Of a stretch of DNA of 64,000 bases, positions 4,493 to 60,640 are shown in pieces. Each line of letters begins with the position of its first letter. Position 1 is the stretch's first letter. The notes under the pieces are model-generated. The model ran no database searches, was not told the origin of the DNA, and saw only the letters and a list, made by a program, of their open reading frames with translations. The position numbers and the translations under genes were made by a program. Where the stretch lies: positions 129,511-193,510 of the forward strand of contig JBAZSC010000001.1 in the NCBI GenBank assembly GCA_041662665.1, written 5' to 3'. This stretch comes from Patescibacteria group bacterium. Lineage in GTDB: Bacteria > Patescibacteriota > JABMPQ01 > JAQVVF01.

Positions 4493-4521
4493 TTGACTGT
4501 TTAATCAAATTTTGTTTTAAT
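4493..4521 (+). promoter_or_regulatory. sigma70-like promoter (cassette A): TTGACT - 17 nt - TTTAAT
   Basis: Near-consensus -35, 17-nt spacer and -10, followed by a short leader with a GGAGGAG SD. One of three near-identical copies (approximate coordinates). Confidence 0.55.
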
Positions 4522-4549
4522 TTACGTAGCACCCTAACAGGAGGAGAGA

Positions 4550-4960: not shown

Positions 4961-4975
4961 ATTCAAAAATTAATA

Positions 4976-5004
4976 TTGACACATCGTTTAGATTTTGTTT
5001 TAAT
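4976..5004 (+). promoter_or_regulatory. sigma70-like promoter (cassette B): TTGACA - 17 nt - TTTAAT
   Basis: Consensus -35, 17-nt spacer, -10 TTTAAT, then the leader AGTACCTTGAGAGGAGG. Confidence 0.6.
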
Positions 5005-5032
5005 CTATACAGTACCTTGAGAGGAGGAAGCA

Positions 5033-5411: not shown

Positions 5412-5427
5412 TCCTCAAAAATTATTG

Positions 5428-5456
5428 TTGACAGTCAATTCAAAATTTGTTTTAAT
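5428..5456 (+). promoter_or_regulatory. sigma70-like promoter (cassette C): TTGACA - 17 nt - TTTAAT
   Basis: Third copy of the same promoter module, followed by the leader AGTACCTTGGGAGGAGAGGAGGG. Confidence 0.6.
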
Positions 5457-5488
5457 TTAACAGTACCTTGGGAGGAGAGGAGGGAAAG

Positions 5489-21701: not shown

Positions 21702-21860
21702 AATATTTTAAAAGCCAGCAAAATAAAATGCTGGTTTTTTTAATTTAGTAATGATAAAATAATTTGACAAGTTAAATAAGTTAGACTAGTTAGACTTGTT
21801 AGATTAGTTCGTTAACTTATTTAACCAGTCTAACAAATCTAACCAGTCTAACAAATATTC

Positions 21861-22973
21861 ATGTATCTTTCTTCTCTTCAACTTAAAAATTTTCGCAATT
21901 ACAAAGATTTTGAATCAAGTTTCACCAATGGCTTGATTATTTTGACTGGCCAGAATGCTTCCGGAAAAACTAATTTATTAGAAGCAGTTGAATTATTGTC
22001 ATTATCAAAATCTTTTCGTGCCAGGTCAGAATACGATTTAATTTTATTTGGTATGGATTTCGCCAAAATTTTAGGAACATCACAGAAAAATAATCACCAA
22101 ACAAAATTAGATATTACTATTGATTCATTAACTTCCAAAAATCAAAAAGTAATTAAAATTGATGGTTTAAAAAGTCGCGCTTTTGATTTGATCGGCGAAT
22201 TAGTTACTGTACTTTTTTCTCCAGAAGATTTGAATTTAGTTAATTCAGCGCCACAACTTCGCCGACGTTATTTAGATGTTGTCATTTGCCAGATTAATAA
22301 AGACTATTGCCGAAATTTGTCCGAATACAAAAAAGTTTTAATTAATCGAAATCAGCTTTTAGCTAATATCAAAGATGGTTATGCAAAAAAAGAGGAATTA
22401 AGTTTTTGGAATGAAAAATTAATTGATTTAGGAACAAGGATTATTATCGAACGCCAAAAAACTTTACAATTTTTTAATACTAAATTGTCAGAAATTTACA
22501 ATGATATCTGCGATACTAAAGATCAAAAACTTCGTATAATTTATCTACCAAATTTGCCTTTGTTAAAAGATTCAGACATCAAAAAATTATTTGAACAAGA
22601 ATTAAATAATAAATACGAAAGAGAAATTTATAAAACTTACACTTTAGTTGGTCCGCATCGAGATAATTTTGTTTTTGAACTTAATAAAAAGAGATTAGCC
22701 ATCTTTGGTTCGCGAGGTGAATATCGCAGCGCAATATTAGCTTTAAAATCTGCAGAATTAGATTTTATTGAACAAAGCTTGGGAGAACGACCGATTCTTT
22801 TGCTTGATGATGTTTTTTCTGAATTAGATGAAAAAAGACGCAATCACATGTTTGATTTAGTCAGACGCCAGCAAACTTTTATCACTTCTGCTGATTTTGT
22901 CGGACTTGAAGTTGGTTTTGTTAGAGATGCGCAAGTACTTCAAATCAAAAATGGAGAAATAACGAATAAATAA
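21861..22973 (+). CDS. recF: DNA replication and repair protein RecF
   Basis: LQLKNFRNYKDFESSF...GQNASGKTNLLEAVELL (Walker A). SMC-like ABC ATPase, 370 aa. Confidence 0.85.
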   Translation: MYLSSLQLKNFRNYKDFESSFTNGLIILTGQNASGKTNLLEAVELLSLSKSFRARSEYDLILFGMDFAKILGTSQKNNHQTKLDITIDSLTSKNQKVIKIDGLKSRAFDLIGELVTVLFSPEDLNLVNSAPQLRRRYLDVVICQINKDYCRNLSEYKKVLINRNQLLANIKDGYAKKEELSFWNEKLIDLGTRIIIERQKTLQFFNTKLSEIYNDICDTKDQKLRIIYLPNLPLLKDSDIKKLFEQELNNKYEREIYKTYTLVGPHRDNFVFELNKKRLAIFGSRGEYRSAILALKSAELDFIEQSLGERPILLLDDVFSELDEKRRNHMFDLVRRQQTFITSADFVGLEVGFVRDAQVLQIKNGEITNK

Positions 22974-22974
22974 C

Positions 22975-23075
22975 AAAATCCAAATTCCAAACAAATCACA
23001 AATAACAAACGACAAATCGTCGATTTTGTAATTTGGATTTTGTAATTTGTTTGGAATTTGGTATTTGTAATTTAT
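22975..23075. repeat. intergenic composite palindrome, 'caaatcccaaat' family (copy 1)
   Basis: ccaaattccaaacaaatcacaaataacaaacgacaaatcgtcgattttgtaatttggattttgtaatttgtttggaatttgg is a long imperfect inverted repeat. The same sequence family recurs at 26252-26360, 37489-37612, 48279-48330/48700-48762 and 50612-50715. Confidence 0.7.
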
Positions 23076-23081
23076 TTCGAG

Positions 23082-24293: not shown

Positions 24294-26252
24294 ATGAACA
24301 TATCAACTTTAGCAAAAAAATTAGGTTACCATAGCCAAGAAATGCGCAAGATGATTGAGGCAATGGGATATCGACTTCGACCAACAGCGTCGAAGATTTC
24401 TGATAAAAAAGCAAAAGAAATTACCAAAAAAGTAGAAAAGCTAGAAAAGGAAAAAACTCTAGAAATGAAAGAAGAACAGAAAAAAGTTGAAAAAGCCAAA
24501 GAACCAAAAAAACTTTATGTCGCCCAAACTATTACAGTTAAGGATTTCGCACAAGTTTTAGAAATGGAAGTTACTGATGTCATTAGACAATTGATCCAGG
24601 AAGGCATCATGGCAACAATCAATGAAGAAATTGATTTTGAAACAGCGAGTATTATTGCTGAAGAATTAGGCCATAAAATTGAATTAAAAAAAGAAGAAAA
24701 AGATTTGATTAAGGAAAAAGGAGTTCGCAAACAGATTCTCGAAGATTTATCTCATGAAGAAGAAAAGAATTTAAAGCCTCGTCCTCCAGTTGTTGTTGTC
24801 ATGGGTCACGTTGATCATGGCAAGACAAAATTATTGGATGTCATTCGCGAAACAAATATTATTGCTACTGAAGCAGGAGGTATTACTCAAAAAATCGGTG
24901 CTTATCAAGCAAAATGCAATGGCAAAGTCATTACGTTTTTAGATACTCCTGGTCACGAAGCTTTCAAAGCAATGCGCGAAAGAGGTGCAAAAGTTACTGA
25001 TATGGCAATTCTTGTTGTTGCAGCTGATGACGGTGTTATGCCTCAAACAGAAGAAGCAATTGCGCATGCCAAAAATGCTGGCGTGCCAATTATTGTTGCT
25101 ATCAACAAAATAGATAAAGAAGGTGCTGATCCAGAAAAAGTAAAAAGACAGCTCGCTGATTTAGGTTTGCAACCAGAAGATTGGGGAGGCGATACAATTA
25201 TGGTTGAAATATCTGCCAAAATGAATAAAAATATCGATAAGCTTTTAGAAATGGTTTTATTGCAAGCGGAAATTTTAGAATTAAAAGCCAACCAAGAATC
25301 AAAAGCCATAGGCACAATCATTGAAGCAAACAAAGATCCCAAAAAAGGTCCAGTTGCTACAGTTTTGATTCAAAATGGAACTTTGAATTTGGGCGATTAT
25401 GTTACTTGTGGCAGTATCTATGGAAAAATCAAGGCAATGGAAAATTTCTTAGGCAAAAGAATAAATCATGCTAAGCCATCAACTCCAGTTCAAATTTTAG
25501 GTCTTACAGCAGTTCCAGATTCTGGCGATATTTTGCAAGAAGAAAAATCCAAAGAAGCAGCTCGAGAAAAAATTGCCAAAATCGCAAAAGCAGAAATCAA
25601 GATTAAACGCAATTTGACTCCAGAAGAAGAAAGAAAAATTAAAAAATTAAATATAATTTTAATTGCTGATTTTTATGGATCTCTTGAAGCAATTATTGAT
25701 GAGCTAAACAAAATCAATTCCAAGCAAGTTATGCCTCAAATCATTGATTATTCTGCTGGCAAGATTACTGAATCAAATGTCATGAATGCTCAATCTTCAA
25801 ATGCAATTATTTTTGGTTTTAATTCTAAGCCAACAACTGTTGCATCTCGTCTTGCCGAAGATAAGCATGTCAAAATATTTTCCTACGATATTATTTACGA
25901 ATTAATTGACGAAATCAAAAAACAATTGAGTTCTTTGATCGAGCCAGAAGTCATTAAGACAAAATTAGGCAAACTTAATGTTTTAGCAATTTTCAGATCT
26001 GAAAAGAAAAGAAAAATTATTGGCGGCAGAGTCTTGTCTGGCTTCCTAGCAAAAGATTCAATTGTAAAAATAATCAGAGAAGATGTAGAAATTGGCCAAG
26101 GAAAAATTACTACTGTTCAAAAAAATATGGCTGATGTACAAAAGGTAGAAGCAGGTTCAGAATGTGGAATGTCAATTGATACGACTGTCAAAGTTAAAGA
26201 AGGTGACGTGATTGAAGCTTGGAAAGAAGAAATCAAAAAAATCACTTTATAA
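24294..26252 (+). CDS. infB: translation initiation factor IF-2
   Basis: G-domain VVVVMGHVDHGKTKLLD, DTPGHEAF and NKIDK motifs. 652 aa with a short N-terminal region. Confidence 0.9.
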   Translation: MNISTLAKKLGYHSQEMRKMIEAMGYRLRPTASKISDKKAKEITKKVEKLEKEKTLEMKEEQKKVEKAKEPKKLYVAQTITVKDFAQVLEMEVTDVIRQLIQEGIMATINEEIDFETASIIAEELGHKIELKKEEKDLIKEKGVRKQILEDLSHEEEKNLKPRPPVVVVMGHVDHGKTKLLDVIRETNIIATEAGGITQKIGAYQAKCNGKVITFLDTPGHEAFKAMRERGAKVTDMAILVVAADDGVMPQTEEAIAHAKNAGVPIIVAINKIDKEGADPEKVKRQLADLGLQPEDWGGDTIMVEISAKMNKNIDKLLEMVLLQAEILELKANQESKAIGTIIEANKDPKKGPVATVLIQNGTLNLGDYVTCGSIYGKIKAMENFLGKRINHAKPSTPVQILGLTAVPDSGDILQEEKSKEAAREKIAKIAKAEIKIKRNLTPEEERKIKKLNIILIADFYGSLEAIIDELNKINSKQVMPQIIDYSAGKITESNVMNAQSSNAIIFGFNSKPTTVASRLAEDKHVKIFSYDIIYELIDEIKKQLSSLIEPEVIKTKLGKLNVLAIFRSEKKRKIIGGRVLSGFLAKDSIVKIIREDVEIGQGKITTVQKNMADVQKVEAGSECGMSIDTTVKVKEGDVIEAWKEEIKKITL

Positions 26253-26360
26253 ATCCCAAATCCCAAAAAACAAACAAATAACAAATTACAAATCACAATC
26301 CGTCGACTTTGTAATTTGTTATTTGGGATTTGTTTGGAGTTTAGAATTTGTAATTTTACG
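26252..26360. repeat. intergenic composite palindrome, 'caaatcccaaat' family (copy 2)
   Basis: aaatcccaaatcccaaaaaacaaacaaataacaaattacaaatcacaatccgtcgactttgtaatttgttatttgggatttgtttgg, lying between infB and rbfA. Confidence 0.7.
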
Positions 26361-26811: not shown

Positions 26812-27795
26812 ATGTTTAAATTTATCGACATTCAAATAAATCGCGCATTATATTTAATCAAAAAAGCAGAAAATATCCTGATTATTTGCCATCGCAAGCC
26901 GGATGCTGATACTATTGGATCTGCATTAGCTTTGGGTGATATTTTAGAAAAACAAAATAAAAAAATTGAATACGCTTGCCAGGATCAAATCCCTAGCAAG
27001 TTTTTTTTCCTAAAAAATGCCGACAAAATAAAAAAGATTGATGAAATTTTAAAGAATTTTATTAATTACAAGTTACTAATTACTTTGGATTGTGGAAGTT
27101 TCGAACAGACAGGTCTACACAACTTTTTTAGCATCAATGAATTTAAAACGCCTATCATAAATATTGATCATCATCATGATAATCCGCATTACGGAAAACT
27201 CAATATTATTGAAGCTAATGCCTCTTCAACTTCAGAAATTGTCCACAATTTTTTGCTAAAAATGAATGTTGATTTAGATAAAAATATTTCAACAAGTTTA
27301 TTAAATGGAATTTTTGGCGATACTGATAGTTTCAAAAATCCAAATACATCTCATGACACTTTAAAAACAACATCAGACCTTTTGGCATCAGGTGCAAATT
27401 TAAAAGAAATTACCAAAAATACTTTGCAAGACAAATCTTTGTCAACTTTAAGACTTTGGGGTAAGATATTGTCAGATATAAAAAAGAACAAAAAACTTGG
27501 CATAGTTTATGCTGTCATTACTAAAAAAGATTTGCAAGAATGCAACGCCAAATCAGAAGATTTAGAAGGCATTGCCAACTTTTTAAATTCAATTCCAGAT
27601 GTTAAGGCCTCATTAGTTTTATCAGAAAATGAAAAAGGCGAGATCAAAGGTTCATTTCGAACTTTGCATGATCATATTGATGTCTCAAAGTTAGCTCGCA
27701 GTTTAGGTGGCGGAGGACATAAAAAAGCTGCTGGATTTACATTGCCTGGCAGATTAATAAAAGAAGATAATGAAATCAAAATAAATCTCGAGTAA
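26812..27795 (+). CDS. nrnA: DHH/DHHA1 phosphoesterase NrnA-like (nanoRNase / pAp phosphatase)
   Basis: ILIICHRKPDADTIGSALAL, IDHHHDNP (DHH motif) and GGGGHKKAAGF (DHHA1 GGGH motif). The internal Met at 26812 (MFKFIDIQ) was chosen because the track start lies inside an intergenic palindrome. Confidence 0.7.
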   Translation: MFKFIDIQINRALYLIKKAENILIICHRKPDADTIGSALALGDILEKQNKKIEYACQDQIPSKFFFLKNADKIKKIDEILKNFINYKLLITLDCGSFEQTGLHNFFSINEFKTPIINIDHHHDNPHYGKLNIIEANASSTSEIVHNFLLKMNVDLDKNISTSLLNGIFGDTDSFKNPNTSHDTLKTTSDLLASGANLKEITKNTLQDKSLSTLRLWGKILSDIKKNKKLGIVYAVITKKDLQECNAKSEDLEGIANFLNSIPDVKASLVLSENEKGEIKGSFRTLHDHIDVSKLARSLGGGGHKKAAGFTLPGRLIKEDNEIKINLE

Positions 27796-28276
27796 AATTA
27801 ATAAAATAAGTAAAATTAATAAAACGACGAAATAAAAACAAAAAAATGGCAAAAATAAATCGAATAGAAGATTTAGATGCATGGCAAGAGGCAAGAAAAC
27901 TTTGTCAAGGAATATATCTTATTACAAATCATTTTCCAAAATATGAACTTTATAATATTATGAAGCATTTGAGAGAAAATGGTCGAGGAGTACCTGCTAA
28001 TATTGCAGAAGGATTTGGCAGATATTTTTTCAAGGAAAAATTAAGATTTTATGGAATAGCTAAGGGTTGTTTAGAAGAGATGAGAAATGATATTTATTTA
28101 TCTTATGACAGTAAATATATTAACAAAGAAATATTCAACAAATTTATCAATCAGATTAATAAAGTTTGCAAACAAATTAATGGACTGATTTCTATTACCC
28201 TTCAATTTATGAAAAAGCATTAAAAATTTCTATTAATTTTATTTCTTATTAATTTTACTAATCTTACTTATTTTAC
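27793..28276 (+). mobile_element. IVS-like element: four-helix-bundle gene carried inside an intergenic inverted repeat
   Basis: Left arm gtaaaattaataaaataagtaaaattaataaaa (about 27793-27825) and right arm ttctattaattttatttcttattaattttactaatcttacttatttta (about 28228-28276) are mutually inverted. They flank the CDS 27846..28223. Confidence 0.45.
27846..28223 (+). CDS. four-helix-bundle protein (family typically encoded in 23S rRNA intervening sequences)
   Basis: LDAWQEARKLCQGIYLITNHFPKYELYNIMKHLRENGRGVPANIAEGFGRYFFKEKLRFYGIAKGCLEEM carries the family hallmarks FP..E.Y.L..Q.RR...S...NIAEG.GR......FL.IA.GS..E. Confidence 0.65.
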   Translation: MAKINRIEDLDAWQEARKLCQGIYLITNHFPKYELYNIMKHLRENGRGVPANIAEGFGRYFFKEKLRFYGIAKGCLEEMRNDIYLSYDSKYINKEIFNKFINQINKVCKQINGLISITLQFMKKH

Positions 28277-29043: not shown

Positions 29044-29157
29044 AATTTTCAATTACCAATTTCCAATTTTCAAATAATATTCAATGGACAATTTTCATTG
29101 GAAATTGATCATTGGTAATTGATTGTAAATTGATAATTGGAAATTGAAAATTATTTT

Positions 29158-34873: not shown

Positions 34874-35662
34874 ATGATAATTTTATTCTTCGGTGATATC
34901 GTTGGCAGAGCTGGTCGTTCTGCAATTAAAAAAATATTACCAGAACTAAAAACTAAATATAATCCAGATTTAATAATTGCTAATGGCGAAAATCTTGCCC
35001 ATGGTCTTGGTATTACAAAAAAAACAGTTCAAGAAGTTTTAGATTCAGGTGTTGATGTTTTAACATCTGGAAATCATATTTATGACAAGACAGAAGGCAT
35101 TGAAATGTTACAGCAAGATAGTAATTTGCCAATTATCAGACCAGCAAACTACCCATTAGATAATCCAGGCAAAAGATATATCATTAAACAAGTTCGGACT
35201 AAAAAAGTTTTGATCACAAATGTTTTAGGCCGAGTTTTTATCAAAGAAGATTTAGATTGTCCATTTAAGACAATTGATAAAATTTTAGAAGAAAATAAAA
35301 ATGAAAAAATAGATTTCAGTATCGTTGATTTTCACAAAGAAGCAACTTCAGAAGTCAAAGCTTTAGGTTTTTATTTAGATGGCAAAGTCTCGGTAGTACT
35401 AGGCACTCATACTCATGTTCAAACTTCTGATGAACAAATTTTAGAAAAAGGAACTGCTTATATTTCTGATGTTGGCATGGTTGGACTAAAGGATTCTGTT
35501 TTAGGCGTTCAAAAAGAAAAAGTTATTGATCAATTCTTGACTCAAATGCCTCATCGATGGGAAGTTGATGAAAGCGGAAAATGCATAATCAATGCTGTTG
35601 TCCTTAATTTTGAAAACGACAAAAAAACAATCACAAGAATTAATGAAGAAGTAGAGATCTAA
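34874..35662 (+). CDS. ymdB: YmdB-like metallophosphoesterase (TIGR00282 family; 2',3'-cyclic-nucleotide phosphodiesterase)
   Basis: MIILFFGDIVGRAGRSAIKKILPELKTKYNPDLIIANGENLAHGLGIT...GNH...GTHTHVQTSDEQILEKGTAYISDVGMVG closely parallels B. subtilis YmdB. Located in the rny neighbourhood. Confidence 0.85.
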   Translation: MIILFFGDIVGRAGRSAIKKILPELKTKYNPDLIIANGENLAHGLGITKKTVQEVLDSGVDVLTSGNHIYDKTEGIEMLQQDSNLPIIRPANYPLDNPGKRYIIKQVRTKKVLITNVLGRVFIKEDLDCPFKTIDKILEENKNEKIDFSIVDFHKEATSEVKALGFYLDGKVSVVLGTHTHVQTSDEQILEKGTAYISDVGMVGLKDSVLGVQKEKVIDQFLTQMPHRWEVDESGKCIINAVVLNFENDKKTITRINEEVEI

Positions 35663-35829
35663 TTTCTAATTTCTATTAAATTTTCAATGAATAATTTCTA
35701 AACGCAGAGCTAATTGCTCTGTTTTAAATTGTTCTTTGCGCTAAAATAAGTTAAAATAACACTAAGGTTTTAAAATTTATAATTAGAAATTTAATAAAAA
35801 TTGAAAATTGAAAATTGTAATACAAATTT

Positions 35830-36965: not shown

Positions 36966-37085
36966 AAAAACAAATGTCATCCTGAGCCAAAGCTTCGGAT
37001 CCCGAGAATAAGAAAATAATTACGGGATTCTTCCTGCCCGCAGTGCTACAGCGTTGCAGGCGGGCGGCTTTGGCCTCAGAATGAC
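36966..37085. repeat. GC-rich nested hairpin element (copy 1 of 2)
   Basis: The outer stem is gtcatcctgagccaaagc...gctttggcctcagaatgac and the inner stem ggatcccg...cgggattc. It also contains cctgcccgc..gcgggcgg. A second copy with the same outer and inner stems lies at 60553-60630. Confidence 0.55.
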
Positions 37086-37142
37086 GCGAAATTTTTCATT
37101 TTGCATTTATAATTTTTAATTTTTTGAGAGGTGGTGATAATT

Positions 37143-37424: not shown

Positions 37425-37488
37425 GATTTTATTTTTATATATTTAAAAAGGCGAGAATCAATTCTCGTCTTTTTTAAAAAACCAAAAA

Positions 37489-37612
37489 AAATCCCAAATA
37501 CCAAATCCCAAACAAATTACAATAACCAAATTACAAAATTTTAAGAATAAGTTTTGTGATTTGTAATTTGTTAATTGTTTGGAATTTGGGATTTGTAATT
37601 TCGACGTTTAAT
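37489..37612. repeat. intergenic composite palindrome, 'caaatcccaaat' family (copy 3)
   Basis: atcccaaataccaaatcccaaacaaattacaataaccaaattacaaaatttt...gttttgtgatttgtaatttgttaattgtttggaatttgggatttgtaattt. Confidence 0.7.
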
Positions 37613-37627
37613 TGTTAAAATCATTTC

Positions 37628-39769: not shown

Positions 39770-39950
39770 ACCCAGCTTTAGCTGGGGTTCGAAAAACTTT
39801 AGTTTTCGTCGGCGTTCTACTGCAACTTTAGTTGCACAAACCCCAGCTGAAGCTGGGTCATAAACGAGTTACTACCCAGCTTTTAGCTGGGGATTAAAAA
39901 TTTTGGATTGCAAAATTTTTACTGCAACTTTAGTTGCAGTAGTAGAAATT
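39770..39950. repeat. cluster of five short hairpins sharing a cTTTAg loop
   Basis: cccagctttagctgggg occurs three times and tgcaactttagttgca twice, arranged A-B-A-A-B between pcrA and rsmA. Confidence 0.6.
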
Positions 39951-40741: not shown

Positions 40742-41000
40742 TAACTAGTTACTCGAATAAGTTATACACAAGCAACAAAAATCAGAGAAATAATTATTTT
40801 ATTTAGGCTTAAACAAGGTTATTATTCTTATAACTTACAACTTATAACTTATTTCTTCGTTTTGACACAAATTCATAAAATTGTTATTATTAAGCTAATA
40901 GAAAAAGTCCGCAATTTCTGCGTTAGCTTCTGCGTTAGCTTCTGCGTTAGCTTCTGCGTAGTTTAGCGAGTATTTACAAAACAAAATCAAATTAATCAAA

Positions 41001-42041: not shown

Positions 42042-42153
42042 ACGAGCAAATTCCGCGTTTTCTGCGATTAAAAATTTATTTCAAAATTTTTAATTTCCGC
42101 GTAATTCTGCGTTAAAAACTAATTAAATAGACTAGTAGCAATTAAATTTATAA

Positions 42154-42990: not shown

Positions 42991-43148
42991 AATTAATAAA
43001 ATAGTTTTAGTCAGTTTCTGTGTTTTCTGCGTTAGATTCTGCGTCATTCTGCGAAAACGTTTTAAGCGCAGAAAAACGCAGAATCTAACGCAGAGTCAAA
43101 AATTTTTATAACAAAATTTTTGACGCAGAAAAAATAGCCACAATCAAC

Positions 43149-45413: not shown

Positions 45414-46835
45414 ATGCAAAGATTAAGTTTAACACAATTAGTCGATCAAAATATTTTTGACAAGATTTTCAAACAAGCACAAGACTGTGAGCGTTTTAGT
45501 TTTCAAGGAGAATATGGTCCAATAGCTTATCAGATTATTTTGACAATTGATAATGCGTTGCAAAAATTCCCTCAATTGAAATCAGAAAATCCAGAAATTT
45601 ACAAAAAATATAATGATCTAAATATTCATCTAAAATTCCATTGCCAAGAATATCTGCCAGATGATAATGATGTTTTAGATCTCTATGAAAAACATTTAGC
45701 TGATGCTTTGAAAAGAAATATGAATTTAGAAAGATGGCTTCGAAACAAGCTTATCTCAATGCGGATGACTTATCGCGATGAATACGTGAACAAAATAAAG
45801 GCAATAATCAAAAAAAACCAGCAAAAAATTGGTGAAAAAGAAATCATAATTTCTAATAAAAAATATCAGCCAACAATTGAAAATTGGATCAAAGATTATG
45901 AATATGAAGCTAATCCCGGCATCCATTCTTTAGTTGAAAGAAATAATTATTTTTTCCAATCCAAAAATCCTAGAAATTTGAATGAGCAAGAAAAGAAAGA
46001 ATTAAAAAAACTTTTGCAGCTTTTTGATCGAATGCAATTAAAAATAACTGACGCTGGAAGTTTAACTGGTTATTCAGCATCAATGTATGGCATTGAACTC
46101 AAAAAAACAGTTGATTTAGGCGCTTTTACAACCAAAGAGCAAGAGCATATTGATAAGGGAATCAAACAGCCTGCATCAAGTGTCAAGCCAATCCCATTCC
46201 CAACTAAAAAAACAGAACAGCGAGAAAAATTATTAGCAGAAAACAAAAAACTTGCCGAAAGAGAAATGCTTGGTGTAGTAGATATTAAAAAACTTCAGGC
46301 AGCTGAACCAAGCAATAGATTTATTGCATCTATAAAGAGAATCGGCAAACCAATAAAAAAAACAGAACCAAAAATTGAAGAAACAAAAGTAATAAAAGCA
46401 GTTCCAGAAAAAGAAGTTGTCAAAGAAATTGCAAAGCCAAAAACAGAAGAATTACCAAATCCTCCAAAAAAAGTTTTTCACAAAGAACACAAAATTTTAA
46501 CCCCAGCAAAGCCAGTCATTGTTTCCAAACAAATCAACAGAATTCAAAATCTTACTATTTTAGAATTCAGAGATCTAGGTACTGATGCAAAACAATCCGC
46601 GCAGAAATTATTAAATAATCTTCGCGATATTGCCAAGACTCATGAAGAGAGAAAAATTGCTCAAGAAAATTTCATGAAAAGTCCGCTTTACAAATTATAT
46701 GAGGCAATGACAAATCAAAGCGAAACAGAAAAAAAATCAATCAGCCAAGTTTCAAAAGATAGGCAAGATCAGAAAATGGAATATTTGTCGGAAGATGAAT
46801 ACATCGCGGTGAAAAGTATAAGCAAGCTTATCTAA
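45414..46835 (+). CDS. hypothetical Lys/Glu-rich soluble protein (473 aa)
   Basis: ORF inside the T4SS-like locus. No recognised motif. Confidence 0.45.
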   Translation: MQRLSLTQLVDQNIFDKIFKQAQDCERFSFQGEYGPIAYQIILTIDNALQKFPQLKSENPEIYKKYNDLNIHLKFHCQEYLPDDNDVLDLYEKHLADALKRNMNLERWLRNKLISMRMTYRDEYVNKIKAIIKKNQQKIGEKEIIISNKKYQPTIENWIKDYEYEANPGIHSLVERNNYFFQSKNPRNLNEQEKKELKKLLQLFDRMQLKITDAGSLTGYSASMYGIELKKTVDLGAFTTKEQEHIDKGIKQPASSVKPIPFPTKKTEQREKLLAENKKLAEREMLGVVDIKKLQAAEPSNRFIASIKRIGKPIKKTEPKIEETKVIKAVPEKEVVKEIAKPKTEELPNPPKKVFHKEHKILTPAKPVIVSKQINRIQNLTILEFRDLGTDAKQSAQKLLNNLRDIAKTHEERKIAQENFMKSPLYKLYEAMTNQSETEKKSISQVSKDRQDQKMEYLSEDEYIAVKSISKLI

Positions 46836-46949
46836 TTTCCAATTAACAATTTCCAATTTTCAATAAATTACCAATTTTCAATTTACAATGAATTCTCGCA
46901 GTTTTGAAAATTGGTTATTGGAAATTTATTGTAAATTGGTCATTGAAAA

Positions 46950-47393
46950 TTGAAAACTAATTTTATGCAGTATCCCATTCCTCAATTTGTCGAAATAGAA
47001 GACCAGATTATCGGCCCTCTGACTTTAAAACAATTTTTTTATTTATTAGGTGGCGGAATATTTTTACTGATTGCTTGGTCATTTGTTGATCTGACATTAT
47101 TCATTTTTCTAGCAATAATTGTTGCTGGAATAACAATGCCATTAGCTTTTGTCAAACCTTATGGCAGACCATTGACTGATTATCTTTCTGCAGTTTTCAA
47201 ATACATTTTAGGTCCAAAAATATTAGTCTGGCATAAAAGTGGAAGAGCTCCGAGAGTAAAAGCCTATGATCTTAATAAGAAAAAATCTGGTCCAGAAAAA
47301 ATCACCATTGGCGAAAAAAAATATACACCAAGCTCTATTCATCGTCTTGCAAGACAACTTGATTTTAAGACGGTCATGAGCGAAAAAAAATAA
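46950..47393 (+). CDS. small two-TM membrane protein, VirB3/PrgI-like candidate
   Basis: 147 aa. Two adjacent hydrophobic helices (LLGGGIFLLIAWSFVDLTLFIFLAIIVAGITMPLAF). Lies immediately upstream of the VirB4-like gene, as VirB3/PrgI does. Confidence 0.4.
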   Translation: MKTNFMQYPIPQFVEIEDQIIGPLTLKQFFYLLGGGIFLLIAWSFVDLTLFIFLAIIVAGITMPLAFVKPYGRPLTDYLSAVFKYILGPKILVWHKSGRAPRVKAYDLNKKKSGPEKITIGEKKYTPSSIHRLARQLDFKTVMSEKK

Positions 47394-47533
47394 TCATAAA
47401 TGATCAATTTCCAATTCTCAATTTTCAATAAGTTGCCAATGAACAATTTTCAATGGCTACTTCGTAAGTTTTGAAAATTGGTTAATTGATAATTTATTGG
47501 AAATTGTAAATTGATAATTGAAAATTAAAACTG

Positions 47534-48277
47534 ATGTCCAAAAAACAAGACAAGAAAAAAAATAGTGCTGAAACAAAGCAACAAGAAGAAACAATGCTTT
47601 CAAGCAAAGCAGTCAAGAAAGAAGAAGAGACTACTCAGAAGTTTTTAAAATTGTCTGGAATTAGAGATGGAATAGTAATTTTAAATAATAAAGCTCTACG
47701 AGCAATTGTAATGTGTTCATCAATTAATTTTGCTTTAATGTCTGAAGATGAACAAAAAGCAAAAGTTTTTGGCTATCAAGATTTTTTAAATTCATTAAAT
47801 TTTCCAGTTGAGATTGTCATTCAGACCAGAAAATTAAATATTGGAAGTTACTTAGAAAAAGTCAAAGAAGCAGAAAGAATGCAGGAAAACGAATTATTGA
47901 GAATCCAGACAGCAGAATATGCTGAATTTATCAAATCTTTAGTTGAACTAGCAAATATCACAACTTCTCATTATTATGTTGTTGTCCCATATTCTCCTCC
48001 TGGCATTGAAGCAACAGAAGGAATTTTAGATAAACTAAAAGGCATAATTTCACCAGCTTCAAAAATAAAAGAAGAGCAAGTTGGTTTTCAAAAGCAACAA
48101 GAAGAGCTTTTGCTTCGTGTTAATTCAGTTATCAGTGGTTTAGGCGGAGTTGGAATTCAATCAGCACAGCTAAATACTCAGGAAGTAGTTGAGCTATTAT
48201 ATTCATGGTATAATCCAGATGAGAGCACCACTGAGATTTTAGGAGAATTAGAGAAGCTCAAGATAGAGCAGGCATAA
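47534..48277 (+). CDS. VirB4/TrsE-like ATPase, N-terminal domain encoded as a separate ORF
   Basis: FLKLSGIRDGIVILNNKALRAIVMCSSINFALMSEDEQKAKVFGYQDFLNSLNFPVEIVIQTRKL matches the N-terminal region of Gram-positive VirB4 homologs (pattern I..DG.I......F.K.Y.L.DINF.....EEQ...F..F..FLNS....V.FQI). In homologs this region is contiguous with the segment that opens the next ORF. Confidence 0.55.
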   Translation: MSKKQDKKKNSAETKQQEETMLSSKAVKKEEETTQKFLKLSGIRDGIVILNNKALRAIVMCSSINFALMSEDEQKAKVFGYQDFLNSLNFPVEIVIQTRKLNIGSYLEKVKEAERMQENELLRIQTAEYAEFIKSLVELANITTSHYYVVVPYSPPGIEATEGILDKLKGIISPASKIKEEQVGFQKQQEELLLRVNSVISGLGGVGIQSAQLNTQEVVELLYSWYNPDESTTEILGELEKLKIEQA

Positions 48278-48278
48278 A

Positions 48279-48762
48279 AAAAATCCCAAATCCCAAATTC
48301 CAAACAAATTACAAATCACAAAAAACAAAATTGCCCGAACAAAATAAAACTAACAAATTATATAATCTCGAAGACCGAACTTTAGAATTTAGTAAAAGAG
48401 TTGCCAATATGTGCAACGCTTTGCCTAAAAATTATATTAATATTGTTTATATAAATCAGATTTTAAGATCAGGGAGTTCGATAGGTGCTAATTACATAGA
48501 AGCAAATGAATCATTAGGAAAAAAAGATTTTAAAATGAAAGTAAGAATTGCTAGAAAAGAAGCAAAAGAAACAACTTATTGGCTGAATTTAATAATAGAT
48601 GCTAATCCAGAATTTAGAAAAAGAATTGAACCATTATTACAAGAATCAATCGAAATAAGAAATATTTTATCAACAATAATAAACAAATCTAATTAATTTT
48701 TTTTGTAATTTGTATTTTGTATATTGTAATTTGTTTGGAATTTGGGATTTGTAATTTATAAT
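48279..48762 (+). mobile_element. IVS-like element: four-helix-bundle gene carried inside a 'caaatcccaaat'-family inverted repeat, inserted at the junction of the split VirB4 gene
   Basis: Left arm aaaatcccaaatcccaaattccaaacaaattacaaatcacaa (about 48279-48330). Right arm ttgtaatttgtattttgtatattgtaatttgtttggaatttgggatttgtaattt (about 48700-48762). Both flank CDS 48331..48696. Confidence 0.45.
48331..48696 (+). CDS. four-helix-bundle protein (23S rRNA IVS-type family), second copy
   Basis: LEFSKRVANMCNALPKNYINIVYINQILRSGSSIGANYIEANESLGKKDFKMKVRIARKEAKETTYWLNLI. Shares the family pattern with the 27846 gene. Non-ATG (TTG) start per the track. Confidence 0.55.
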   Translation: MPEQNKTNKLYNLEDRTLEFSKRVANMCNALPKNYINIVYINQILRSGSSIGANYIEANESLGKKDFKMKVRIARKEAKETTYWLNLIIDANPEFRKRIEPLLQESIEIRNILSTIINKSN

Positions 48763-50313
48763 AACGTTATGCAGGACAAAGATTTGCCAGTTGGCAAAAA
48801 AAATATCGAAAATTTGACTGAAGATGAGCAACAAGAAATCCTTAAGGCTGAAGAAATTTACAGAAAGGGTCTGGTTTCGATTCGCGATATTATTGCGCCA
48901 AGTGCATTGCAGGTTAATCCAAATTTTCTTAAATTAGGCGACAAGTTTGTCAGAACTTTGTTTATTTTTACATATCCTCGTTTTGTAAATACTGGCTGGT
49001 TTGCTCCAGTTATCAACATGAACATCGAAGCTGATATGGCGATGTATATTAATCCAGTTAGCTCCGAAAAAATCCTAAAAACTTTAAAAAATAAAGTTGG
49101 ACAAATCCAATCCACAATGGCAGGCAAGCAAGAAAAAGGCGAAGTTAGAGATCCAATGCTAGAAACAGCACTCAATGATGTTGAAGAACTTCGCGATCGT
49201 TTGATACAAGGCACAGAAAGATTTTTTCATTTTGCATTATATATCACAATTTACGAGAATTCTGAAAAAAAATTAGAGCAAACAACCAAAGAAATTGAAG
49301 ATTTACTTGGTCAAAGATTAATTTATTCCAAGCGAGCTTTTTTTCAAGCTGAACAAGGATTCAATACTACAACTCCGCTAGGTTTAGATGAACTAGGAGT
49401 CCTCAACAATTTTAATACATCTCCATTATCAACTAGTTTTCCATTTGTTTCTTCAGAATTAACTTCCGATGAAGGTGTTCTTTATGGAATTAATCGTCAT
49501 AATAATAGTCTAATTTTATTCGATCGTTTTACTTTGCCAAATGCTAATTCAGTTGTATTTGCAACTTCTGGTGCTGGAAAAAGTTATGCTGTAAAATTAG
49601 AAATTTTAAGATCTTTAATGTTTGGAACAGAAGTTATCGTCATTGATCCAGAAAATGAATATAAATATTTATGTGAATCAGTTGGAGGAACATTTTTAAA
49701 AATGTCTCTAGAATCAGAATACAGATTAAATCCATTTGATTTGCCAGTAGCAATTTCCGGCATGAAAACAAAAGACATTATTAGATCTGCAGTTATCAAT
49801 ATCAAAGGCTTATTAAGAATCATGTTGGGCCGTCTTACTAAAGAAGAAGATGCTTTGTTAGATAGAGGAATTATTGAGACATATGCTAAAAAAGATATTA
49901 CTGCTGAATCAGATTTGTCAAAAATAGAAGTTCCGACAATGAAAGATCTGCAAGAAATTCTAGAAGGCATGCAAGGAGCAGAGGATATAGTTCCAAGAAT
50001 TAAAAAATATACTGAAGGCACTTTTGCTGGATTATTAAATCAAGCCACAAATGTCAGAATTGATAATCCATTTGTCGTTTTTAGCATCAGAGATCTAGAA
50101 GATGAGTTACGTCCAATCGCAATGTATGTTATTCTTAATCATATCTGGAATATTGTTAGAGCAGAGATGAGAAAAAGAATTTTGGTAGTTGATGAAGCTT
50201 GGTGGATGATGCAATACGAAGAATCTGCCAGATTTATGTACAGTATTGCCAAAAGAGGCCGAAAATATTATCTTGGCACAACCACAATTTCTCAGATGTT
50301 AATGATTTTCTAA
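48742..50313 (+). CDS. VirB4/TrsE-like ATPase, central ATPase portion (frame changes near 50300)
   Basis: DIIAPSALQVNPNFLKLGDKFVRTLFIFTYPRFVNTGWFAPVIN (conserved VirB4 segment). Walker A VVFATSGAGKSYAVKLE. Walker B/arginine region ILVVDEAWWMM...AKRGRKYYLGTTTISQ. The likely start is the Met at about 48769, which has no SD. The ORF terminates 2 codons after the conserved TQ. Confidence 0.7.
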   Translation: MGFVIYNNVMQDKDLPVGKKNIENLTEDEQQEILKAEEIYRKGLVSIRDIIAPSALQVNPNFLKLGDKFVRTLFIFTYPRFVNTGWFAPVINMNIEADMAMYINPVSSEKILKTLKNKVGQIQSTMAGKQEKGEVRDPMLETALNDVEELRDRLIQGTERFFHFALYITIYENSEKKLEQTTKEIEDLLGQRLIYSKRAFFQAEQGFNTTTPLGLDELGVLNNFNTSPLSTSFPFVSSELTSDEGVLYGINRHNNSLILFDRFTLPNANSVVFATSGAGKSYAVKLEILRSLMFGTEVIVIDPENEYKYLCESVGGTFLKMSLESEYRLNPFDLPVAISGMKTKDIIRSAVINIKGLLRIMLGRLTKEEDALLDRGIIETYAKKDITAESDLSKIEVPTMKDLQEILEGMQGAEDIVPRIKKYTEGTFAGLLNQATNVRIDNPFVVFSIRDLEDELRPIAMYVILNHIWNIVRAEMRKRILVVDEAWWMMQYEESARFMYSIAKRGRKYYLGTTTISQMLMIF

Positions 50314-50603
50314 CATCAGATTATGGTAAAGCAATTGTTACTAATTCCGCTTTGCAATTATTATTAAAACAATCTCCAGCCTCAATTGATTTATTGAAAA
50401 AAACTTTTTATCTAACAGAAGAAGAAAAATATTTACTTTTAGAATCAGATGTTGGTGAAGGTATTTTCTTTGCAGGTAGCAAACATGTTGCAATTAAAAT
50501 AGTCGCTTCATATTCAGAAGACCAAATCATTACCACAGATCCAAAACAATTATTAGAATTAGAACAAGCCAAGAAGAATTATGAACAAGAACAAAATGTT
50601 TAA
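50199..50603 (+). CDS. VirB4/TrsE-like ATPase, C-terminal portion in the -1 frame
   Basis: From ...DVNDFLTSDYGKAIVTNSALQLLLKQ onward this frame continues the VirB4 C-terminus. It overlaps the previous ORF by 115 nt. This means a frameshift, an authentic pseudogene, or a sequencing indel near 50300-50315. Confidence 0.55.
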   Translation: MVDDAIRRICQIYVQYCQKRPKILSWHNHNFSDVNDFLTSDYGKAIVTNSALQLLLKQSPASIDLLKKTFYLTEEEKYLLLESDVGEGIFFAGSKHVAIKIVASYSEDQIITTDPKQLLELEQAKKNYEQEQNV

Positions 50604-50611
50604 AAACAAAA

Positions 50612-50715
50612 GCCACAAATCCCAAATTCCAAACAAATTTCAAATTACAAATCACAAAATTGCAAGTTTGTTTATTGTGATTTGTGATTTGTTTGGATTT
50701 TGGAATTTGTAATTT
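50612..50715. repeat. intergenic composite palindrome, 'caaatcccaaat' family (copy 6)
   Basis: ccacaaatcccaaattccaaacaaatttcaaattacaaatcacaaaattgcaagtttgtttattgtgatttgtgatttgtttggattttggaatttgtaattt. Confidence 0.7.
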
Positions 50716-54984: not shown

Positions 54985-55123
54985 CGAATTTTCAATTTAT
55001 AATTTCTAATTTCTATTAAATTTTAAATAACTAATTTCTAAAGCTATCGTAGAGAAGGTTTGAAAATTTTAGCATTGAAAATTTAATAGAAATTAGGAAT
55101 TAGAAATTAGAAATTTTCTCTTT

Positions 55124-60528: not shown

Positions 60529-60552
60529 AAAACAAAAAACAAAAAATAAAAA

Positions 60553-60630
60553 TTGTCATCCTGAGCGAAGCGAAGGATCCCATGACTAAACAAAAAAATC
60601 ATGGGATTCTTCGCTGCGGCTCAGAATGAC
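60553..60630. repeat. GC-rich nested hairpin element (copy 2 of 2)
   Basis: gtcatcctgagcgaagcgaaggatcccatgac...gtcatgggattcttcgctgcggctcagaatgac. Same outer and inner stems as 36966-37085. Lies between the convergent radA and 60694 genes. Confidence 0.55.
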
Positions 60631-60640
60631 GATGCAAAAA

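Follow-up and report, generated by a model that had tools for sequence, protein, structure and literature searches.

Heptamer-repeat palindromes at gene junctions of a Patescibacteria genome look like widespread relatives of rRNA intervening sequences

Introduction

The Correia (NEMIS) elements of Neisseria, ERIC/IRU, RUP and the Rickettsia RPE are palindromes of ~100-150 nt that share transcripts with adjacent genes and vary between strains. RNase III cuts the hairpins of Correia elements, which can also terminate transcription or provide promoters. The cyanobacterial STRR are runs of degenerate 7-nt units between genes and have no known function; we know of no report that links them to the protein family PF05635. 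To our knowledge, the four-helix-bundle proteins of PF05635 are described either as of "function unknown" or as Avd, the accessory factor of diversity-generating retroelements (DGRs), and have no known catalytic activity. The REPIN-RAYT system, said to go back to Bertels and Rainey in 2011, reportedly joins REP doublets to a domesticated IS200-like transposase.

The closest described system is the rRNA intervening sequence (IVS). The 23S IVS of Coxiella forms a stem of terminal inverted repeats that is cut by RNase III, carries an S23p ORF in its loop, and has tandem heptamers ahead of that ORF (PMC4990558). Insertions in the 16S and 23S rRNA of CPR bacteria can likewise contain ORFs of the 23S_rRNA_IVP type (PMC11270868). 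Here we analyse a family of long palindromes, family A, that lies between protein-coding genes of a Patescibacteria contig, and compare it with these systems.

Results

Five palindromes nearly fill their gene spacers

The window is a 64,000-nt stretch of the contig with a G+C content of 31 %. A first-pass annotation, made by reading the sequence, had placed nearly the same arm and its inverted copy at six loci. Palindromes built on this arm are present at all of these positions, but they amount to five elements, because 48279-48330 pairs with 48700-48762 in a single hairpin. An inverted-repeat search of the window returned five family-A arm pairs, with arms of 48-56 nt and a complementarity of 71-88 % (Table 1). 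The likeness of the copies goes well beyond A/T bias. A 35-mer quoted from the arm has 5 matches at three or fewer mismatches in the window (0.00 expected), the 17-mer core of this 35-mer has 13 (1.5 expected), and an arm profile built from the copies of other genomes recovers exactly ten window arms (E 3e-10 to 0.017), the rest being noise. These ten arms are 77-90 % identical to one another, a conservation far above that of terminators, as the annotation had noted. Across the infB-rbfA copy the window agrees base for base with an independent JGI assembly (L151), which rules out an assembly artefact for this palindrome.

All five elements lie between + strand genes, which agrees with the codirectional placement first described, and they nearly fill the spacers. 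The left arm sits on or just after the upstream stop codon in 4 of the 5 copies, and the next start codon follows 5-27 nt beyond the right arm. The left arm of palindrome 1 overlaps the recF stop codon (22971-22973), and palindrome 2 starts on the infB TAA (26250-26252); the ATG of dciA (23082) and that of rbfA (26364) each stand 5 nt past the element. The exception is the hup / uvrD copy, where a G+C-rich T-tract terminator stands between the hup stop and the palindrome. This is also the most degenerate family-A copy (71 %).

The long imperfect hairpins of the first-pass description are borne out by folding. The four compact copies, which carry no ORF and measure 104-132 nt each, fold as RNA at -31.5 to -46.6 kcal/mol (z -5.1 to -10.2), with none of 200 shuffles as stable. 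Element 4 has 379 nt between its arms and closes a large loop that contains a gene. The stretch 48270-48770 folds with both arms paired, and its flank duplex reaches -56.3 kcal/mol.

Table 1. Coordinates of palindromic elements and associated genes in the window
Feature	Position	Strand	Arms	dG (kcal/mol)	z	Details
Family-A palindrome 1, recF / dciA	22965-23076	+	22965-23016, 23025-23076	-43.4	-9.4	loop 8 nt
Family-A palindrome 2, infB / rbfA	26250-26358	+	26251-26298, 26309-26356	-31.5	-5.1	
Family-A palindrome 3, hup / uvrD/pcrA	37483-37614	+	37483-37537, 37560-37614	-39.6	-6.6	
Element 4, left arm, A/C-rich	48278-48330	+	48281-48329 (inverted-repeat pair)			directly after TAA of TraC-like/VirB4-N ORF (47534-48277)
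Element 4, right arm, G/T-rich	48701-48760	+	48709-48757 (inverted-repeat pair)			VirB4 ATPase ORF ATG at 48769, 8 nt downstream
Element 4, loop gene	48331-48696	+				121 aa; PF05635 E 4.7e-17; TIGR02436 E 2.7e-23; PDB 2RLD E 2e-18
Family-A palindrome 5, VirB4 C-terminal ORF / 222-aa ORF	50611-50714	+	50615-50662, 50663-50710	-39.7	-6.8	
Second IVP element, other arm family	27792-28276	+	27792-27822, 28246-28276			arms 31 nt, 87 %
Second PF05635 gene	27846-28223	+				E 2.2e-29; PDB 2GSC, the Xanthomonas XCC0516 pentamer
Family-B heptamer palindrome	29044-29152	+				CAATTTC units; between cdaA and ybbR; no ORF
Further family-B copies	46833-46959, 47404-47520					either side of prgI gene
Family-C heptamer palindrome	54987-55115	+				AATTTCT units; second copy 35661-35809

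The arms are heptamer arrays

The 5′ arm is A/C-rich and nearly without G, and the other arm is its G/T-rich complement. Compared with itself, the arm reaches an identity of 0.56-0.76 at a shift of 7 nt (z 3-5) and of ~0.4 at a shift of 8 nt, and the arm can thus be described as an array of about seven degenerate heptamers. The unit is CCAAAYY, with one 11-nt unit, CCAAACAAATY, per array. An outer AAATTAC unit is common to the right arms, and left arms are without it.

The family-A hairpin potential is real, but comparison of the arms does not support pairing as a selected feature. Arms within one hairpin are 77-88 % alike, no more than arms of different copies, which reach 90 %. No covariation between arms was found in a wider set of 43 hairpins, where variable heptamer positions are mostly mismatched, and the + and - strand RNAs of the family-A copies fold equally well. 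Pairing thus does not seem to be under selection.

In many hairpins, including those of L048, L052, L059, L074, L088 and L092, one arm has AAGCACC where its partner has AAATTCC or AAATCCC. Where AAGCACC faces AAATYCC in this way, the stem has an internal mismatch, which is conserved across phyla and keeps a fixed distance from the stem base. The polarity of the AAGCACC arm relative to gene direction followed no consistent pattern in other phyla, as judged from rough gene calls.

A promoter reading of the arms was rejected as a general role: only two right arms have a sigma-70-like match of 9-10/12, and the background of such matches is high (110 found, 74 expected).

A four-helix-bundle gene occupies one loop

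One copy had been said to carry a gene in its loop, and it does. The product of 48331-48696 is a four-helix-bundle protein of PF05635/TIGR02436, a "23S rRNA intervening sequence protein" (IVP). The gene starts with TTG, lacks a Shine-Dalgarno sequence and is oriented like the genes that flank it. Its closest structure, PDB 2RLD, is pentameric, with five chains in the entry, and a database protein annotated as "four helix bundle protein" (P0001) is 100 % identical to it. The remaining four family-A copies carry no ORF.

The window holds a second IVP element, with arms of another family, between the stop of a DHH-family gene (27795) and the cdaA ATG (28282). BLASTP found no detectable similarity between the two IVPs. 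The nearest homologues of the element 4 IVP (P0005, P0008 and P0010, 68-73 % identity) are encoded at unrelated junctions (uppS / NTP-transferase, glyS / M16 peptidase), where the profile again finds family-A arms. IVP lineages move together with their arm families.

Inverted repeat arms on both sides are a general feature of IVP genes. Among 15 IVP genes from Patescibacteria, Bacteroidota and WOR-3, the duplex between the two 90-nt flanks has a median of -36.4 kcal/mol, compared with -17.7 for 53 control genes (Mann-Whitney p = 1.7e-7). The arms of most IVP genes examined have a period of 7 or 14. The IVP genes of Bacteroidota and WOR-3 have inverted arms of unrelated sequence, built on GGAGAGA and CATTGTC units in two cases.

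Two further loci are arranged differently. L121 (4711-5843) encodes a 317-aa ORF with an N-terminal PF05635/bAvd domain and has its arms in reverse order, the G/T-rich arm first and CCAAACT-repeat arms after the ORF. In Bacteroidetes RA.bin148 (L118, 503-659 and 1133-1301), a complete palindrome stands on each side of an IVP gene whose two 148-nt flanks are 91 % mutually complementary.

Element 4 was first described as lying within VirB4. Its flanking ORFs do match VirB4: 47534-48277 matches the N-terminal part of CD1110/Mbov_0397-type VirB4, and the downstream ORFs match the ATPase part. The N-terminal piece, however, ends in its own stop codon and is a gene in its own right (PF26593 "TraC-like", typically 200-450 aa), found in thousands of genomes and ~2,100 cluster representatives, so the element is intergenic and interrupts no reading frame. 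We accordingly rejected an insertion into VirB4, notwithstanding the homology of the upstream ORF to the VirB4 N-terminal domain. Element 4 sits between two genes of an anciently split VirB4. The ATPase gene is frameshifted in this genome only (48769-50313 and 50199-50603, split at ~50199-50313), and is intact in L154 and L156 (611-612 aa); it is either a pseudogene or the product of a sequencing error.

Other repeat families in the window

The six-copy family of the first-pass annotation is real, but it is not alone in the window, and its arm also occurs far outside the lineage. Long palindromes occupy ~20 of the ~55 gene junctions. Families B and C have period 7, D and G period 8, and F period 9; several G+C-rich palindromes are non-periodic.

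Among the latter, those at 36975-37100 and 60550-60640 have the common core TGTCATCCTGAGC...GGATCCC...GGATTCTTC and form a separate non-periodic family. A G+C-rich palindrome on ACCCAGCTTTAGCTGGGG lies at 39770-39907 (uvrD / ksgA); L156 has a variant of it (2046-2147), and the L154 junction is 6 nt. Units of TTCTGCG(TTAGC) at 40900-40990, 42042-42153 and 43026-43094 make up a repeat family with units of ~10-12 nt. They occur as four direct repeats at ~40900-40990; others lie in a 112-nt insert that both relatives lack, and others again form the two arms of a palindrome. Finally, a promoter-like block (TTGAC, N17, TTTTAAT, short leader) occurs three times ahead of small ORFs, at ~4493-4535, ~4975-5032 and ~5423-5467. 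Two of these blocks are followed by a GGAGG ribosome-binding site, and the arrangement resembles a duplicated promoter and leader cassette.

Junction occupants are replaced between close relatives

Two genomes, L154 (GCA_028699085.1) and L156 (GCA_964574655.1), share the T4SS operon of the window, with flanking proteins 77-96 % identical. Their orthologous junctions show both presence or absence and replacement (Table 2), in keeping with the dispersed REP/MITE-like family proposed at first pass. The same junctions hold different arm families, have or lack an IVP gene, or hold nothing, and the elements thus turn over quickly. IVPs at the same junction are ~41 % identical across relatives, so occupants were replaced and not inherited. 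At several junctions L154 is empty, with 0-28 nt, against palindromes of 112-190 nt in the window. No empty site for the window's own family-A copies was found among the relatives compared. Palindromes or IVP elements have repeatedly settled at the junction between the VirB4 N-domain and ATPase genes (47534-48277, 48769-50603).

Table 2. Occupants or spacer lengths of orthologous junctions in the window and two relatives
Junction	Window	L154	L156
PrgI / TraC	family-B hairpin	IVP gene, A-like arms	IVP gene, another arm family
TraC / VirB4	A arms + IVP	B-type arms + IVP	123-nt ORF-less spacer
VirB4 / 222aa	A hairpin	C-type arms + IVP	B hairpin
347aa / 280aa	112 nt	ATG directly after TAA	ATG directly after TAA
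280aa / TrbL	158 nt	2 nt	
222aa / 217aa	190 nt	28 nt	
uvrD / ksgA	144 nt	6 nt	

A third relative, L158 (InfB 85 % identical), keeps a diverged A-like hairpin at infB / rbfA and has an extra one after rbfA, where the window spacer is 40 nt. At the start of its contig, just upstream of the ORF in the dciA position, it carries a GAATCTA heptamer family in place of the recF / dciA family-A copy. A metagenome scan with the InfB C-terminus found the same organism and two distant loci only.

The arms also differ in detail between genomes. CCAAA and CTAAA are counted 24:1 in window arms and 3:13 in those of L154, and such genome-specific variants point to spread or homogenisation within each genome after divergence. 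Four filled-versus-empty junctions, all of other families than A, revealed no clear target-site duplication; one has an imperfect AATTTAT(T)AA repeat, possibly by chance in this A+T-rich DNA.

The arm recurs in more than ten phyla

The 17-mer core occurs in at least 120 genome contigs, against a chance expectation that we estimate at ~70 matches in 596 Gb. In at least 109 of the contigs the arm continues into the flanks, with a sharp 5′ boundary, and the extended consensus is AAATtCCAAATtcCAAgcaCCAAATTCCAAACAAATtCCAAAttCCAAtgaCCaAAAC. Among the matches listed, the hosts belong to more than 10 phyla and their contigs have a G+C content of 30-68 %. They include many Patescibacteria classes, Bacteroidota, Planctomycetota, Verrucomicrobiota, Acidobacteriota/Aminicenantes, Desulfobacterota, Nitrospirota, Chloroflexota, WOR-3, Omnitrophota and one Nanoarchaeota bin. 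Flavobacterium proteolyticum 1Y8A, with an arm at 6238-6305 of L111, is a cultured host.

About 40 arm pairs form hairpins among the matches listed. Of 96 testable arms from other phyla for which nhmmer detects no partner arm, at least 42 also have no complementary stretch within 130 nt; since solo arms are common, the arm sequence may matter on its own. Among the matches listed, 40 of 168 arm boundaries have a same-strand stop codon within 40 nt. At L056 the palindrome fits tightly between convergent genes, 4 nt from each stop.

In one planctomycete contig (L062, 65 % GC), a solo A/C-rich arm (2220-2287) lies between paralogous genes, 32 nt past one stop and directly upstream of the next start, and a full hairpin follows the second gene. 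In the MAG "bacterium AUK056" (L086, 826-2290), three same-strand arms are spaced ~700 nt apart on a contig in which table 11 yields hardly any long ORFs. This array may reflect an alternative genetic code or be non-coding.

We also asked what accompanies these arms. An IVP gene lies within 8 kb of a cross-phylum arm at 4 of the 120 loci listed, and those IVP genes carry other arm families; cross-phylum arms as IVP neighbours were accordingly rejected. Among viral contigs the 17-mer was found in 5 only, and phage carriage was rejected. The blastn search of plasmids gave no match, with a low-complexity filter that may mask the query. Rfam 15 had no match in the window at gathering thresholds. 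In E-value mode, the window and L062 gave only far sub-threshold hits to generic miRNA-precursor hairpins, and 15 loci from other phyla gave tRNAs only. The family is thus absent from Rfam 15, and a literature search of incomplete coverage found no published description of such heptamer palindromes.

Discussion

We consider it probable that the family-A palindromes are mobile hairpin elements, MITE- or REPIN-like derivatives of IVS-type elements, that colonise the spacers between genes. The IVS-like architecture in many copies, combined with rapid turnover, leads us to read the five elements as one IVP-bearing and four ORF-less members of a single mobile family. The full form would carry a PF05635 gene, encoding the Avd-like four-helix bundle protein of 23S rRNA intervening sequences, in its loop. 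The four short copies would be ORF-less forms, related to it as MITEs are to transposons or REPINs to RAYT genes. The elements are probably co-transcribed with neighbouring genes. By analogy with rRNA intervening sequences, RNase III may cut the 45-55 bp stem, which would set the loop (IVP) RNA free and split the transcript of the operon. Spread of the elements would need a means of its own, in which the IVP protein may take part.

RAYTs are thought to maintain or spread REPINs. A wider proposal, which we make tentatively as a genuine possibility, gives PF05635 proteins a similar place: they may be dedicated partners of heptamer-repeat palindromes, each IVP lineage maintaining or spreading its own arm family. 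The classical 23S rRNA IVS might then be one landing site of a pan-bacterial class of elements that invade hairpins and junctions, and the CCAAAYY arms a widely dispersed ORF-less member of that class.

The palindromes could instead be terminators or 3′-end mRNA stabilisers that are selected by the host and evolve in place, with their likeness due to constraint or gene conversion. Their hairpins are very stable, they begin at or just after stop codons, and in other phyla they can sit as tightly between convergent genes as at L056. A role as terminator or processing site, which the first-pass annotation had added to its mobile-element reading, nevertheless finds little in the stems themselves. 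A terminator consensus scan flags none of the five; the one site that it places within family A, on the - strand, is the 5-bp hairpin in the loop of copy 1. The stem base consists of A-U pairs where a G+C-rich base would be canonical, and only ~3 U follow it. Ordinary G+C-rich T-tract terminators occur separately, at ~37445-37475 adjoining copy 3 and at ~21711-21742 with a family-F palindrome. Copies also lie inside likely operons, the conserved infB-rbfA pair and, for family B, cdaA-ybbR. The two strands fold equally and the arms have no compensatory changes. Orthologous junctions in ~90 % identical relatives hold unrelated arm families, IVP genes or nothing, and the same irregular arm sequence recurs in more than 10 phyla. 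Host-selected terminators are therefore an unlikely explanation.

It is also improbable, in our estimation, that a DDE (or HUH) transposase from another part of the genome moves the palindromes in trans as classical MITEs, with the IVP gene as passenger cargo. Much of what defines a MITE is present: terminal inverted repeats, small size (104-132 nt), short ORF-less copies, TAAAT...ATTTA ends compatible with a TA target, genome-specific subfamilies, and insertion polymorphism with filled, empty or replaced junctions (L154, L156, L158). An autonomous element with the same ends and a transposase was not found in the window: transposase, RT and RAYT (Y1_Tnp) domains are absent from all 56 of its ORFs, and ORF-bearing versions encode PF05635 only. 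Against trans-mobilisation also stand the four comparisons without a clear target-site duplication and the common solo arms of other phyla. Several unrelated arm families share one heptamer architecture, so several transposases would be needed in a ~0.65 Mb genome. The solo arms would also fit a functional unit that is the single A/C-rich, G-poor heptamer array, acting as an RNA or DNA binding platform; candidate partners are Rho, loading onto an array exposed past the stop codon, or some other conserved protein, and the palindrome would merely show the array on both strands. A palindrome places the A/C-rich arm first on either strand, the sequence is conserved more than the pairing and as far as genomes of 60-68 % GC, and many boundaries are close to same-strand stops (40 of the 168 listed). 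Yet all ten window arms are paired, the heptamer period fits no binding register known to us, and the GGAGAGA, CATTGTC and GAATCTA families have the same architecture with a different composition. A binding platform would also leave the IVP genes in hairpin loops unexplained, and we regard it as very unlikely.

If the mobile-element reading is true, it gives the first functional context, that of a gene in the loop of a repeat hairpin, for PF05635/TIGR02436, a very large family without a known role outside DGRs. rRNA intervening sequences would become one niche of a general gene-junction element. A non-coding sequence of ~60 nt that Rfam lacks would be conserved from Patescibacteria of 30 % GC to Planctomycetota of 65 % GC. 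The spacers of streamlined CPR genomes, with ~20 palindromes in 64 kb, would be a fast-moving compartment, which would matter for operon-level expression, for breaks in MAG assemblies and for strain typing.

Among known systems, STRR resemble family A in being degenerate heptanucleotide arrays between genes, but STRR are tandem arrays, whereas here inverted arm pairs surround a loop. Correia/NEMIS and other MITEs are likewise palindromic and of similar size. They have no sequence similarity to family A, however. The comparisons made here gave no clear duplication of a TA or other target, and the elements have no known IS-type parent; their arms have an internal period, and what the loop carries is an IVP gene.

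REPIN-RAYT offers a further parallel. In both, intergenic hairpins of ~100 nt made of two inverted units are dispersed after genes, subfamilies are genome-specific, and the repeats also flank a small protein gene. The flanked gene here is PF05635 and not a Y1/HUH transposase, so family A is analogous to that system and not a member of it. Each genome here has several arm families and several IVP genes, one and the same arm is found in many phyla, and the A+T-rich heptamer arrays contrast with the G+C-rich stems of REP.

It is the rRNA intervening sequences of Coxiella burnetii, Leptospira, Xanthomonas and CPR bacteria that come nearest. They too have a long stem made from terminal inverted repeats, an optional loop ORF of PF05635/S23p with a poor or absent ribosome-binding site, and tandem heptamers in the 5′ part (GACAGAT in Coxiella). 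They also exist in short ORF-less versions and are sporadically distributed, as if spread horizontally. Family A differs in lying between protein-coding genes and not in an rRNA helix, the window being without rRNA. Its stems are 45-55 bp long, compared with 28 bp, and consist almost wholly of heptamer arrays, and a genome has many copies, in several arm families. With these differences, the family looks like an undescribed and very widespread relative of the rRNA intervening sequences.
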